Virus record (IMG/VR): IMGVR_UViG_3300001529_000023
Coordinates: 1 to 11,654 of that record
DNA: 11,654 bases
Origin: a virus
Strand: one strand, 5' to 3'
In this document: positions 1-11,654 of the stretch, in pieces
Layout: each line of letters opens with the position of its first letter
Position numbering within the stretch: position 1 is the stretch's first letter
The notes under the pieces: generated by a model
The model's input: the letters and a program-made list of their open reading frames with translations, nothing else
Databases searched by the model: none
Told to the model about the DNA's origin: nothing
Position numbers and translations under genes: made by a program

Positions 1-570
1 ATCGACGTTTCCAGAAATTCCCTTTACTTTTCCTTTGCTAGAGTATTGATGATAAATACAGTCATAATGAGGAACATCATTATAATCGGCAAGCCATATT
101 ATATATTTTTTTATTGTTGAAGCATCATACCAGTTTTTATAATAATCTTGGTTTAAATAAAATCCAGCTTTGTATCCTTGACTTTCAATATAATCACAAA
201 AGGCATTTGTAAAATCAATACAATTAGTTCTTGTTAATTTAATACCTTTCTTTTTGGCACTATTTACTGTATCATATTCAAAATCATAGAAAATAATAAT
301 ATCTTTACCAAGGCCCGCCTCTTCAACGTTTTTAATGCAAGACTTAGCTTCTTTTATTGCGTCATTTTTATTTAATGCATACGCAAAATGATATACGCCA
401 TGAATAGCAATGCCCGCATCTTTAAATTTTTTTACATTTGTTAAGAAATGCTTATCTATTGCTTGTCTATATCCCTATCTAATAATGACAAAATCTATCC
501 CATCATCCTTAACTTTTTTAGCGTCTATATTTCCTTGCCATTGAGAAATATCTATACCTTTTAAAGTCAT
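1..570 (-). CDS. GH25-family lysozyme (phage endolysin) catalytic domain. Start at 570; the 3' end runs off the window. One in-frame TAG (475-477) is read as sense.
   Basis: The reverse-complement translation from the ATG at 568-570 is MTLKGIDISQWQGNIDAKKVKDDGIDFVIIR-TAG-GYRQAIDKHF...FYDFEYD...IWLADYN...HQYSSKGKVKGISGNVD. This matches GH25 signatures: GxDxSxxQG, the catalytic D/E pair in FYDFEYD, and a QY...G..G.VD tail. Apart from the single TAG, the frame is open to position 1. The RBS AAAGGAG lies 8 nt upstream of the ATG. The ORF track does not list it because the TAG breaks the ORF. Confidence 0.8.
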
Positions 571-576
571 TTTATC

Positions 577-617
577 TCCTTTCTAAAAAGAAAAACGGGA
601 GAATTATTCTCCCGTTT
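577..617 (-). terminator. Rho-independent terminator-like hairpin between holin and endolysin. The holin stop codon sits in the loop.
   Basis: A perfect inverted repeat, 593-603 aaacgggagaa and 607-617 ttctcccgttt, with a 3-nt loop at 604-606. On the minus-strand transcript it is followed by UUUUUCUUUUU, then the endolysin RBS. Confidence 0.45.
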
Positions 618-834
618 CTTCTTGAGTATCTTCAATATCTTTTAATTCAGGCAATCCTGCTAGACTTGTCATAATTGATAAGATACCAGCTGTGCAAGCT
701 ACTGATCCTACATAGATCCAATCTACTTCTTTAAGCGCGGCTCCTACAGTAATCATAGAAGCAAAAGTCTGTGCAAATGTTTTAATTGCACGAATACCAG
801 CAGCTTTTAGCCATCTTTTATTTTTTTCACTCAT
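604..834 (-). CDS. Phage holin (small membrane protein, phiLC3/LL-H-like)
   Basis: A 76-aa ORF with a hydrophobic core (FAQTFASMITVGAALKEVDWIYVGSVACTAGILSIMTSLAGL) and a charged C-terminus. It lies immediately upstream of the endolysin on the same strand. The RBS AAAAGGAGGTG is upstream and the stop is TAA. Confidence 0.6.
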   Translation of the reverse strand: MSEKNKRWLKAAGIRAIKTFAQTFASMITVGAALKEVDWIYVGSVACTAGILSIMTSLAGLPELKDIEDTQEETGE

Positions 835-840
835 ACAAAT

Positions 841-8060: not shown

Positions 8061-8216
8061 TTTTTATTTTCTCCTTTTTTTATTATGATAATATTATATA
8101 ATAATTTTTTTAAAAGGTCAAATTCAAGAAAAATAGGATTTAGGTTTTTTATTTTTAAAAGAATATATAAATAGGAGAATTAGTATAGATTATACTATAA
8201 AAAGGAGGAAAAATAG
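8061..8216. promoter_or_regulatory. Divergent AT-rich intergenic region between the minus-strand block and the plus-strand late block
   Basis: 156 nt with no ORF. It contains TATAAT-like hexamers and a repeated AAATAGGA...TTAG motif at about 8133 and about 8171. The strong RBS AAAGGAGG (8201-8208) precedes the ATG at 8217. Confidence 0.3.
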
Positions 8217-11123
8217 ATGCCAGGAATAAATAATAATTTATACCCACCTATTTTTAAAACAGCATATGCGCCTGCTTTCGCTGATGAATGTAGAGTTTAT
8301 TTTGCAATATCTAATTATAATAATTTAGATGATATTGATATAAATAAAGTACAAGTAATTGTACAAAATCAAAAAACGAATCAATCTGTATTAAAAAAAG
8401 AATCATACCCTAGCGGTATAAAAATTGCGTCTTTAAAAACAGATCTTGAACGAGCAGGAGATGATAGATATTACATTGAATTAATGGATTCTGATATTGA
8501 AGGAAAAACGGGTTTTAGTTACAATCAATATTATAAAGTTCAAATTAGATTTACTGCGAAGAATAAACAAGTAAAAAATATTTCAAATTCGCAGAAAATA
8601 GATAATTGGTTAAATGAAACTTTACAATATTTTTCTTAGTGGTCAACGGTAGTATTAATAAAACCTGTTAGTCGTTTAAAAATTTCTTTAAAATATTTTG
8701 AACAAGAATCTTAGAGTAATACTTTAACAACTAATTCTTTTACTGTTCTTGGATAGGTGAAGCATGAGGCTGATTCTGATAGAGAGGAATTAAAAAATTA
8801 TAGAATATCCGTATATACTGAAGACGGAGAATTATTAGAAGATAGCGGATAGTTACTTTTTAATGAGGATAATTAGATTCAATACCATTGTCGATATAAT
8901 TTTTAGAATGGAGATTATAAAATAAAAGTATCTGTATTAACTAAAAATTTATATTTTCAATAGCAAGTTTTTGATTTTCAGGTGTCCGCCGTCGCTTATA
9001 CTAATTTTGAGGCAGTGATTTCCGCAGATATAGACAATAAAAATGCATGCGCGGTTATCTCTGTTAAAAAAGATTTAATGGTTGGATTAAATACTAATAT
9101 AGTAATTTAGAGAACTTCTAATAAAGAAGATTTTAAATATTGGTAGGATGTTTATACAACTTCAATTCCTGCAAATAGTATTTTAAATTTTACTTGGAGA
9201 GATTATACTATTGAAAGCGGCGTTTGGTATAAATATAGAGTATCTAAACGAAATCAATAGAATTTTAGATCGACTCCTATTGAAATAAAAAATCCTATTA
9301 TGGCAGATTTTGAAGATATATTTTTAACTAATATTGAAGGACAATTAAAAATTCGATTCGATCCTCAGATTAATAATTTTTCTAAAGTCGTATCGGAGTC
9401 CTTAGTAGAAACAATTGGTTCTCAATATCCTTTTATTAGAAGGAATGGTAAAGTTGGATATAAGACTTTTTCTATCTCTGGAACCATATCTTATTTAACA
9501 GATATAGGTTCTAATTTAATGCATGCTTCTAAAACATAGCTGTATGGAGATTCGGCAAATTTATATAAAGAATATAATCAATAGAACAATATTAATTTAT
9601 ATAATGATATTACTCAGGAAAAAGTTTTTCGAGATAAAGTATTAGATTTTTTATATGAGAATAATGTAAAATTGTATAAATCTTCAACAGAAGGTAATCT
9701 TTTAGTTAAATTAATGAATATTAGTTTAACTCCTAATAATACATTAAGTAGACAAATCTATAGTTTTACATGTACTGCATACGAAATTGATACTTTTAAT
9801 TATAATAATTGTATAAAATATTTTATTCAAGACCCTGGCCAATACGTTTAGGAAGATATTTTATTAATACAGAGATATGGACAGCTTTATTATCCTAATT
9901 TAAGTGTATATTATCCTCAAGAGGATGAGTCTAAACATTTTAATAATAATGATTTATATTTTGGAGCAGGATAGATTTTATCAACGTTAATAAAACAAAA
10001 GTATCAAACTTTAACTAGTGAAGATATTGATATTAATATAAATAAACTATCTTATTTAAAAATTACTTTAACAAGCCCTCCTTATTTAATTGGAGTGATG
10101 GAAAGTTAGCCTTATCGTATTACAGATAGTACATCCGTGACCAATGCAGTTTATTCTGGTCATATAGTTAAAATTAATGGTGTTCCAATTATAATTAATA
10201 AAGATGGTATATATTAGCTTTCTAATGATGATACGGCAATTACTTCATTACAATTTGTCTCTCCTTATGAACAAGGCGTTATAGATTTTGAAGTTTATAT
10301 AGAAGAAAGCGAAAAACAAAAAGTGGATTTTAAAGGATATAATAGTTTTAATAAAATAGGTCAGTTATGGGGAACTTTTAGTTTCTTTGATAGCTTAAAA
10401 GAAAATCTTTGTAATAATATAACAAATAGGTATCTTTTTACAAACGATTCTTACGAACAAGAGGTTCAGCAAATTAATGGTATAAGATTTCAGGCGGAGC
10501 CTGGAACGGTTATTTTTGTACGAGAAAATCAAGATGGCCAATACGAAAAGCATATTTTGAATGAAACTGGATTATTATAGTTTTATGATTAGGATACTAA
10601 TATTCAAGGTTTTTATTTTATGGGACCGAAACTTGAAGAGGTATCAGCGGAAGAGAAAGATAAATATGGTTTAAAACCTTATCAATTTTTTAATACGAAT
10701 GAACCTATTACTTTAGATGTTATAAAACATCCTCAAAATAATTATGTTTATTATTTTTCTTCATATAATAGTATTACTGATACTTTAACGGTTCCCGCCG
10801 GTTAGCTTCATGATTATGGAGATAATGAAATAGATGGTAATGCTTTAGTTATTTCTGATAATACTTTAAATGGTAATTTAATAGGCCCTAATATTTTACA
10901 ATTATATTCTAATTTAAATGACACTACATACACATGGGACGCTACAAGTCAAGAAGCTAGAGAATTAAATAATGAAACTTTAGGATTATTATTTGCTACT
11001 GCTAATAGCTGGATTTATTACCAAGGTATGTGGTATCCTTTTTCTCTTGATCATCAAGTACCTTTAACTCAAACTGAAGCTATAATAGATTATTATTGTA
11101 CAGTTTTGAAAAGGAGGTATTAA
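8217..11123 (+). CDS. Large late/virion-type protein (about 968 codons) in which TAG is a sense codon. About 19 in-frame TAGs; the terminator is TAA at 11121-11123.
   Basis: The track ORFs 8217-8639, 9300-9539, 10323-10580 and 10620-10805 all start in the same frame (start mod 3 = 0). Hand translation of 9300-11123 shows one frame interrupted only by TAG. Track-based positions of those TAGs are 9537, 9582, 9849, 9972, 10107, 10215, 10578, 10590 and 10803. The 8640-9299 stretch likewise holds one frame with nine TAGs and no TAA or TGA. Composition is rich in N, Y, T, S and I. There is a single strong RBS, at 8201-8208. The product family was not recognised. Confidence 0.6.
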
Positions 11124-11128
11124 TTTTT

Positions 11129-11654
11129 ATGAATAAAAGCACAAAATATCAAAAGTATTTAACTGATGCCGCTTTTTTAAAATAGCTTACTGAATTACAT
11201 ATAAAAGATTATTTTGTAAAGATAGCTGTTTTAGATTGGAAAGAGAATTTTATTGAAAATATTGAAGGTAAAGTAATAAGTGCAAGTATCAATATAGATG
11301 GGAATAGTATTATTCGTCGTACCGCAACTTTAAGTGTATTAATAGATGAAACTAATAATAACATTACTAATGTTAAAAATATTTTATCTATTAATAAAAA
11401 AATTAATTTACAAATAGGTTTTATTAATAGTACGGATAAATATTTAGATGAGCCTATTATTTGGTTTCCTCTTGGAGTTTATGTAATAACTGATAACTCA
11501 ATTTCTTACTCAAGCACCGGATTGGTAGCATCGTTACAATTAAAAGATAAAATGTGTTTATTAAACGGAGATTGCGGCGGGACCTTTCCCGCATCAGTTA
11601 TTTTTGATACTTATACGACTATTGATGAAAATGGACATGAAGTAATTGAACGAC
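11129..11654 (+). CDS. Phage structural protein (possible tail or baseplate component), 3'-partial, with an in-frame TAG at codon 19
   Basis: AGGAGG (about 11112-11117) lies upstream of the ATG at 11129. The translation is MNKSTKYQKYLTDAAFLK-TAG-LTELHIKDYFVKIAVLDWKENF...GVYVITDNSISYSSTGLVASLQ... The frame is open for 156 codons after the TAG (about 11183-11185) to the window end. Confidence 0.5.

Follow-up and report, generated by a model that had tools for sequence, protein, structure and literature searches.

Gene content of the window and in-frame TAG codons

The DNA discussed here (positions 1 to 11,654 of IMG/VR virus record IMGVR_UViG_3300001529_000023, below called the window, 11,654 nucleotides in full) comes from an amber-recoded phage with mixed code use, i.e. 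genes interrupted by in-frame TAG codons stand beside genes that are readable in the standard code. The amino acid that UAG inserts in this lineage is most likely glutamate (Glu), as judged from aligned codons and from the type of the suppressor tRNA. Two divergent gene sets join at an AT-rich intergenic region (8061-8216), and the GC skew flips its sign at the same place. The minus strand carries 12 genes, 11 of them complete and one the fragment of an endolysin gene, and the plus strand carries a 968-codon virion gene and the start of a tail gene (Table 1).

Table 1. Genes and signals of the window (aa, amino acids; nt, nucleotides).
Feature	Position	Strand	Remarks
Endolysin, 5' part (GH25 muramidase domain)	1-570	-	ATG at 570, runs off the left end; Pfam Glyco_hydro_25 4e-27, PHROG endolysin 1e-44
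Terminator-like hairpin, 13 pairs and T run	591-619	-	overlaps the holin stop, just upstream of the endolysin ribosome-binding site
Holin, r1t type	604-834	-	Pfam Phage_r1t_holin 2e-15; TAG-free; TAA stop
Conserved gene, no assigned function	893-1315	-	homologues in 10 loci, none with TAG; TAA stop
Metallophosphoesterase	1415-1957	-	Pfam Metallophos; phrog_547 3e-46; TAG-free; sole TGA stop
Polynucleotide-kinase-like P-loop kinase (AAA_33)	1959-2450	-	TAG-free; no TAG in 34 loci
Gene with hydrophobic, signal-peptide-like N-terminal segment (by eye)	2454-3011	-	TAG-free; near-identical strains only
RNA ligase (RNA_ligase domain and PHA02142 OB fold)	3045-4271	-	phrog_968 6e-65; no TAG in 25 loci
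Three small TAG-free genes	4264-4434, 4437-4697, 4703-4879	-	TAA stop in each
Terminator-like hairpin, 15 pairs and T run	4936-4971	-	directly past the major-vault-protein-like gene
Major-vault-protein-like gene, 829 aa	4979-7468	-	Pfam MVP_shoulder 2.5e-23, Vault_3 2.8e-8; TAG-free
First gene of the minus-strand run, 183 aa, no assigned function	7509-8060	-	TAG-free
Best sigma-70-like promoter match of the window (TTGACC, 17 nt, TATAAT; 11/12)	8093-8121	-	consensus match only; divergent intergenic region, upstream of 7509-8060
Virion gene (tail or baseplate region), 968 aa	8217-11123	+	phrog_30026; 19 in-frame TAGs; TAA stop
Tail protein gene, 5' part (full length 711 aa)	11129-11654	+	phrog_32343, phrog_1887 (tail); 1 in-frame TAG

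A sequence-only reading of the window had stated that the minus-strand genes with visible 3' ends neither contain TAG in frame nor end with it, and that the endolysin and both plus-strand genes do contain it. The counts bear this out. There is no in-frame TAG among the 2,364 codons of the 11 complete minus-strand genes, which end with TAA (ten genes) or TGA (the phosphoesterase) and never with TAG, and the 8217-11123 gene, the 11129-11654 gene and the endolysin fragment hold 19, 1 and 1 in-frame TAGs, respectively. As to the endolysin, the TAG at 475-477 (codon 32 of the fragment) was rightly placed in the gene, but a second one that had been counted lies upstream of the start codon and falls outside it. 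The lack of TAG among 11 stop codons is by itself not significant. The lack within the genes is a different matter: TAG makes up 1.6% of the codons and 23% of TAG+GAA+GAG in the TAG-bearing genes of the window, and at these rates the probability of finding none in the TAG-free genes is about 1e-16 (per codon) or about 1e-24 (per Glu-family codon). Out of frame, the same TAG-free genes contain 62 TAG trinucleotides.

Unless TAG is read as a sense codon, the 8217-11123 frame does not stay open over its 968 codons. The stop-to-stop frame, 8052-11123, contains 22 TAGs, three of which precede the ATG and the AAAGGAGG ribosome-binding site of the gene. Recoding of TGA or TAA was rejected, as reading through either codon opens no long frames. 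One might also suppose that the interrupted frames are pseudogenes or assembly errors, since the 8217-11654 region splits into short open reading frames (ORFs) under the standard code. We see practically no room for this explanation: the 968 codons include 19 TAGs but not a single TAA or TGA, the proteins belong to recognisable families, and the same frames with many of the same TAG positions recur in independent assemblies from several samples, so that the conservation data refute it. The two truncated genes are complete in relatives, where the tail gene has 12 in-frame TAGs (locus L001) and the endolysin has 9 TAGs in 490 codons and encodes a GH25 plus a CHAP domain (L048, 11881-13353).

Relatives of the window phage

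A search with the major-vault-protein (MVP)-like protein recovered 47 IMG/VR loci, many of them on contigs of 130-190 kb. An exact look-up of this protein gave no match; a look-up of the kinase protein matched near-identical contigs in Logan and in ENA. The two ENA contigs, ERZ12302821 NODE_114 (118 kb) and ERZ1756110 scaffold_1573790 (140 kb), are 97-98% identical to the window, and their existing gene calls already take TAG as sense. L048 is 97.6% identical and collinear over the whole window. The closest long relative is the 142-kb IMG/VR contig 3300021399_000006, whose MVP-like protein has 85% amino acid identity in the same synteny. Megablast of the window against GenBank phages found no match, and the DNA polymerase III alpha subunit of the group is about 38% identical to those of SPbeta-like Bacillus phages and Enterococcus phage EF1. 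In our view the phage of the window probably has a genome of about 140 kb and is distant kin of the SPbeta-like siphoviruses. The probable host is a rumen or gut Firmicute of low G+C; a Firmicute is indicated by the type of the holin (r1t), by the GH25/CHAP endolysin and by the similarity of the polymerase to those of the SPbeta and EF1 phages.

Distribution of TAG among the genes of the group

Across the relatives, protein families are bimodal, with either about 0 or 16-22 TAGs per 1000 codons. The MVP-like gene has no in-frame TAG within its aligned coding region in any of the 47 loci, and the RNA ligase and the kinase behave in the same way (Table 1). Orthologues of the 968-aa gene have 19-22 TAGs, and each of the eight relatives that have the endolysin gene shows 1-4 TAGs within the first 190 codons of it. 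In L048 and L049 the endolysin, with its 9 TAGs, is the lone TAG-bearing gene among TAG-free neighbours on the same strand, namely the holin on one side and gyrB, gyrA, a second phosphoesterase gene and ligA on the other. In relatives where the MVP identity is 77-78%, the holin is a different one and the endolysin at this place (585-761 aa) is not orthologous; here too the endolysin has 7-17 TAGs and its neighbours have none. Of the two lysis genes, recoding prefers the endolysin: both of the non-orthologous families that occupy this position are rich in TAG, and the holin of the window is TAG-free.

Farther down the same strand both kinds of genes are found. The polymerase III alpha and RecD-like helicase genes are TAG-free, and TAGs occur in the genes for a RecJ-like protein (4-10), an AAA_24 ATPase (1-4), NrdD (3-4), dUTPase (3-4) and a RuvC-like protein (4-5). 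In the strains that are near-identical to the window, the corresponding numbers are 16 in a 322-aa ORF, 4 in RecJ-like, 3 in NrdD, 4 in dUTPase and 4 in RuvC-like.

The TAG-bearing set of the group therefore comprises virion genes, the endolysin, some homing endonucleases and several genes of nucleotide metabolism and recombination, and the TAG-free set comprises the MVP-like protein, RNA ligase, kinase, phosphoesterase, holin, gyrase, DNA ligase and DNA polymerase III alpha; the latter set avoids TAG as sense codon and as stop alike. The two-code architecture proposed by the sequence-only reading is real and conserved, but its layout is a mosaic of single genes and not one of strands or blocks. 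Neither can serve as the divider between codes: same-strand genes of both kinds led us to reject the strand, and the endolysin is an island of TAG in a TAG-free same-strand run. TAG-bearing genes farther along the minus strand, a part of what the reading had named as evidence that would count against it, do exist in the near-identical strains, as the 322-aa ORF and the RecJ-like, NrdD, dUTPase and RuvC-like genes show. Its statement on TAG in lysis genes holds for the endolysin and fails for the holin. The graded TAG counts in replication genes suggest that there are more than two temporal classes, or that the constraint is relaxed.

It could be argued that the TAG-free state has no regulatory meaning, either because the genes in question were recently imported from standard-code sources or because they are too constrained to accept TAG. 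The base composition is in line with an import, as the MVP-like and RNA ligase genes have a G+C content of 0.38-0.40 compared with 0.25-0.30 elsewhere, and they also differ in their choice of glutamine (Gln) codons: the MVP-like gene has 20 CAG and 4 CAA, and most other genes favour CAA. A preprint also gives about 70% similarity between one phage MVP and a Lachnospiraceae MVP, and the tail-fibre genes without TAG that are described below resemble recent swaps. The MVP-like gene, however, is at the same place in 47 loci that cover 53-99% identity and never has a TAG in its aligned coding region, even though the window copy has 18 GAG codons that are one step from TAG. The TAG-free state is kept equally well in RNA ligase, kinase, gyrase, DNA ligase and polymerase genes, and the TAG-rich, non-orthologous endolysins at one position indicate selection on the role of the gene. 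On balance we think this explanation unlikely.

Several further observations on TAG use deserve mention. The highest density was seen in an ORF of 318-322 aa (L057 2268-3236, L088 12628-13584) with 16-21 in-frame TAGs, i.e. 5-6.6% of its codons; its product has an N-terminal membrane anchor and a coiled coil rich in K, E and Q, and the gene is situated within an otherwise TAG-poor replication block. Four large tail-fibre-like genes of the 142-kb relative (831, 570, 407 and >1130 aa; L205 10846-20398) have no TAG although the tail genes beside them are rich in it; they probably represent receptor-binding modules of recent acquisition. The counterpart in the window strain (L203 10837-13311) has 6 TAGs. 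The gyrA, gyrB or polymerase genes, TAG-free themselves, harbour inserted genes for GIY-YIG homing endonucleases (L049 17131-17886, L015 21154-22041, L009 19712-20476, L136 17312-18232); most of these insertions have 1-4 TAGs, the copy in L136 having none. Borges et al. noted a recoded intron endonuclease, with which this agrees.

The suppressor tRNA

In agreement with the sequence-only reading, the window has no tRNA gene that ARAGORN would detect and no match to an Rfam family. The reading had placed the suppressor elsewhere on the element, and for the clade this is supported: the 142-kb relative has an array of 28 tRNAs, far from the window region, which includes a tRNA(CUA) at L287 16817-16889. 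The 73-nt tRNA(CUA) of the clade is CGCCCTTTCGACAAGCGGTCTAAGTCAGTTGACTCTAAATCAACAGTCCTGGGTTCGAATCCCAGAAGGGTGG. It recurs in two metagenome contigs, L377 (73/73 identical) and L383 (72/73), and in L383 the order of the tRNAs is that of L287 even though the flanks are only 77-89% identical. By extension from these closest relatives, the window phage would likewise encode a tRNA(CUA), within a large array of tRNA genes at another place in its genome.

The tRNA sequences of the relatives were too diverse for a family-specific DNA pattern, and an exact D-arm pattern search matched only two viral contigs. The array was reached by an alignment search with a small "MSRSYKK" protein that is lodged in the tRNA arrays of many relatives, more distant ones among them. 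This protein is basic and about 95-100 aa long (L021 20730-21026, L287 10001-10300, L033 2515-2802), and in L033 its gene adjoins a tRNA(CUA). Three walks of 10 kb along the IMG/VR relatives (LigA, RecJ-like and NrdD), and one walk upstream, found no tRNA around the region, and Rfam at the gathering threshold gave no match in about 146 kb of window-clade loci. Among the ten largest standard-code ORFs of L287, Pfam revealed neither a release factor nor an aminoacyl-tRNA synthetase; the sequence examined covered the 142-kb relative except for about 57 kb. Other members of the wider phage group have a tRNA(UCA) or a tRNA(UUA) (L026 3637-3712, L339 3482-3554), which may be opal and ochre suppressors, so that further code variants could exist.

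Another possibility is that TAG is already a sense codon in the host, either throughout its genome or by a suppressor of its own, and that the phage needs no switch. Nothing speaks for this directly except that the suppressor was not seen on the contigs of the window strain itself. The relatives carry their own, highly conserved tRNA(CUA), the avoidance of TAG in so many genes would be pointless in a host that reads it, and we know of no bacterial lineage in which TAG is a sense codon throughout the genome. We regard this explanation as very improbable.

Glutamate versus glutamine at UAG

The assignment of UAG to glutamate rests on two computational lines that are independent of each other, the columns at which TAG occurs and the typing of the tRNA, and it has an internal control in the sister lineages.

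When strains of the window type are aligned with the 85% relative, the codons that face TAG are GAA (69), GAG (11), CAA (20) and CAG (3). Two mutations separate GAA from TAG, and this pairing is therefore no effect of mutational neighbourhood. The profile of partner residues at TAG sites has a log-likelihood of -540 against true Glu sites and of -659 against true Gln sites of the same gene pairs. Conserved columns were then compared in 48 aligned protein families from all 365 loci, taking columns with at least 90% conservation among the non-TAG sequences. Of the TAG occurrences there, 75 are at Q and 52 at E, with almost none at any other residue, and single loci are nearly all of one type. 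The strains near-identical to the window have TAG at 19 distinct Glu columns and at no Gln column. The same picture is obtained if contigs are grouped by their tRNA: those with a Glu-like tRNA(CUA) have TAG at 19 distinct Glu-conserved columns and no Gln-conserved one, and where the tRNA(CUA) is Gln-like, TAG is at 4 Gln columns and no Glu column (Fisher P = 1e-4 for column type vs tRNA type). The sister lineages have TAG at Gln columns by the same method, NrdD being among the examples. The TAG sites of the dUTPase align with Glu in the closest solved homologues.

The tRNA was typed, independently of the proteins, with covariance models for which these phages supplied 19 tRNA-Glu and 18 tRNA-Gln genes; nearest-neighbour identity to typed tRNAs gave only a weak signal, and the models were used in its place. 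The tRNA(CUA) of the window clade scores 75.4-76.7 bits on the Glu model, inside the range of true tRNA-Glu (70-83), and 62.7-63.7 bits on the Gln model, below every true tRNA-Gln (73-86). Members of the other tRNA(CUA) class score 13-21 bits better as Gln than as Glu. The window-clade molecule has a D stem of 3 base pairs, a variable loop of 4 nt and the pairs C1-G72, G2·U71 and C3-G70 to C5-G68. In the D arm it does not differ from a tRNA-Glu(UUC) that a related phage carries.

The obvious alternative is the ordinary genetic code 15, in which TAG is Gln as in crAss-like phages and phAss-1, the Glu signal being an artefact of residue exchangeability or alignment. Every published phage case that we found reports Gln, there is a mild enrichment of Gln at TAG-aligned sites, and the tRNA(CUA) has G73 and U35, features that glutaminyl-tRNA synthetase (GlnRS) recognises. 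An artefact should not, however, give a clean Gln signal in the sister lineages by the very method that finds 19 distinct Glu-conserved columns and no Gln column in the window lineage; the method evidently separates the two. The partner codon is mostly GAA and not CAG or CAA, and the tRNA(CUA) favours Glu by 12-16 bits. With no Gln-conserved columns and a suppressor that is not of Gln type, the window lineage lacks what code 15 predicts, and we hold a Gln code here to be decidedly unlikely. Mixed insertion of Glu and Gln at UAG is possible.

If the glutamate assignment is taken together with the Gln columns of the sisters, it seems fairly probable that one lineage reads UAG as Glu with a tRNA-Glu-derived suppressor while its sisters read it as Gln, i.e. 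that amber was reassigned at least twice in one phage group. Full-text literature searches returned no report of TAG as Glu in a phage. The survey of Borges et al. observed only TAG to Gln and TGA to Trp, and TAG is taken as Gln in the phAss-1 paper (PMC10607447), in a 2024 annotation paper and in a 2026 jumbo-phage survey.

A possible working of the system

The explanation that fits the data best, and that we would put forward with reasonable though not full confidence, is a recoded phage with gene-specific use of TAG, its own tRNA(CUA) and UAG read as Glu. The TAG-free genes would be translatable as soon as the DNA enters a standard-code host, and the TAG-bearing genes would give full-length protein only after the suppressor tRNA has accumulated. 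The promoter-like site upstream of the TAG-free run and the hairpin past the MVP-like gene, both consensus matches, are in line with such a scheme. The tRNA(CUA) would be charged by the host glutamyl-tRNA synthetase (GluRS). In bacteria without GlnRS, a non-discriminating GluRS charges tRNA-Glu and tRNA-Gln (the UUG anticodon included), and amidation by GatCAB requires a U1-A72 pair in the tRNA. With its C1-G72 pair, the tRNA(CUA) should stay charged with Glu, because GatCAB would not convert Glu to Gln on a tRNA that lacks U1-A72.

The endolysin may be held under a second lock. The hairpin at 591-619 is situated between the stop codon of the holin and the ribosome-binding site of the endolysin, and in the 85% relative compensatory changes preserve its pairing. 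The same structure with a different sequence is found at L088 3525-3560 and at L006 16253-16290, in the latter case with non-orthologous lysis genes. A conserved terminator-like structure immediately upstream could thus add to the effect of the amber codons. A TAG just before the catalytic Cys of the CHAP domain was considered and dropped, since "DDYCD", which comes earlier, is the more probable catalytic motif and the site is uninformative; a PDB search with the CHAP region found no match.

Some facts do not sit easily with the above explanation and should be weighed against it. No tRNA(CUA) was found on the contigs of the window strain itself, and about 57 kb of near-identical sequence is tRNA-free. 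Same-strand genes of replication and nucleotide metabolism with 1-10 TAGs blur the distinction of early and late genes, there are tail-fibre genes in the 142-kb relative that lack TAG altogether, and a holin would be an odd member of a unit of early genes. As to the amino acid, Gln is somewhat enriched at TAG-aligned sites (10% vs 5% at true Glu sites), the tRNA(CUA) has the G73 and U35 mentioned above, and acceptance of the CUA anticodon by GluRS is an assumption of the scheme.

The MVP-like gene and the RNA-repair genes

The MVP-like protein belongs to the MVP class by its domains, as both shoulder and vault repeat domains are present. Its gene forms a two-gene unit with 7509-8060, bounded by the best promoter-like site of the window and a strong terminator hairpin. 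In a tblastn search of GenBank phages the protein matched only three huge phages (LR756500, LR756501 and LR756503; 39-42% identity), and MVPs of gut phages have been described before (10.1101/2023.11.10.566534). The CAG bias for Gln of the MVP-like gene is shared by the RNA ligase gene. In L018, L023, L040 and L044 (around 12470-12560) the MVP-like gene appears to end with TAG at codon 831-838, about 20 codons before a TAA or TGA, and no TAG-rich gene is visible in these loci. If these phages are recoded, TAG would be both stop and sense there.

The RNA ligase, the polynucleotide-kinase-like kinase and the metallophosphoesterase are clustered on the minus strand (1415-4271), with the 2454-3011 gene between ligase and kinase. 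All three are TAG-free and conserved in 25-35 relatives. The trio resembles an RNA or tRNA repair set, cf. Pnkp/Rnl of T4, and the lineage depends on a large tRNA array. The 2454-3011 gene is confined to near-identical strains, and L049 and L052 have an additional ORF of 214-260 aa before the RNA ligase (L049 7398-8180); both are small variable insertions in the conserved TAG-free run.

Comparison with known recoded systems

It is instructive to compare the window phage with recoded phages described earlier. The gut phages of Borges et al. are similar in many respects: they have variable TAG numbers in replication genes, standard-code genes that are presumed to be early, a phage-encoded suppressor tRNA and recoded homing endonucleases inside early genes, and the proposed role of recoding is the timing of late genes and lysis. 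There are three differences. Firstly, only TAG to Gln and TGA to Trp were found in that survey, whereas TAG aligns with Glu here and the suppressor is probably derived from tRNA-Glu. Secondly, the phage family is another one, here a large siphovirus of Firmicutes with an MVP-like gene. Thirdly, the endolysin is here a lone TAG island behind a terminator hairpin and does not belong to a recoded module.

The phAss-1 (proposed Phassvirus) group consists of siphovirus-type gut genomes of about 133-138 kb with 28-36 tRNAs, tRNA-Sup(CTA), TAG in 37-41 ORFs including lysis and dUTPase genes, and a distant link to Enterococcus phage EF1 (PMC10607447). The window phage is like it in its siphovirus type, similar size and EF1 link, and its closest long relative also has a large tRNA set with a tRNA(CUA). 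The amino acid is probably different: phAss-1 was reported to have TAG as Gln from a tRNAscan-SE call and a TerL alignment. The phAss-1 paper names the distant kin that were found here too, EF1 included, and lists BK048656_ctOa11 as TAG-recoded (PMC10607447), and a preprint places BK048656_ctOa11 among the first phages with an MVP gene (10.1101/2023.11.10.566534). The phage group, the MVP gene and the amber recoding are therefore all in the literature already.

In the phages described with Mgcod, one part of the genome uses the standard code and another part a reassigned stop codon, as here (bioRxiv 10.1101/2022.06.29.495998). In the window lineage, however, the two codes do not form clean blocks but alternate along one strand between individual genes or small clusters of genes. 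The nuclear code of peritrich ciliates (NCBI table 30), where UAA and UAG are Glu, shares with the window lineage the (here probable) reading of UAG as Glu by a suppressor of tRNA-Glu type. That code is eukaryotic and nuclear, includes UAA, and is genome-wide and permanent, whereas here TAA is the main stop codon and a virus would supply the reassignment to a standard-code cell.

Significance

The mixed-code architecture that the sequence-only reading had noticed is already described for recoded gut phages, to which the window phage adds one more member. The assignment of the codon is another matter, as it would be, as far as the searchable literature shows, the first amber-to-glutamate code reported for a virus. 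Current tools and databases apply table 15 (TAG as Gln) to every TAG-recoded phage, the related contigs included. If TAG is Glu here, about 1.6% of the residues in TAG-bearing proteins would be wrong in public sets (the rate being that of the window genes), with a neutral residue shown in place of an acidic one. The two readings differ by 0.98 Da in virion peptides and so are directly distinguishable.

If the glutamate reading is true, code changes in phages exceed the two reassignments that were thought to be allowed by "hijackable" synthetases, and the amino acid for amber can switch between related phages. It would also implicate the indirect Gln pathway of the host, i.e. a non-discriminating GluRS together with GatCAB, in deciding which amino acid an amber suppressor of the phage delivers. 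Finally, the proposed double lock on the endolysin, hairpin plus amber codons, recurs with non-orthologous lysis genes and independently supports the view that recoding is a guard on the timing of lysis.

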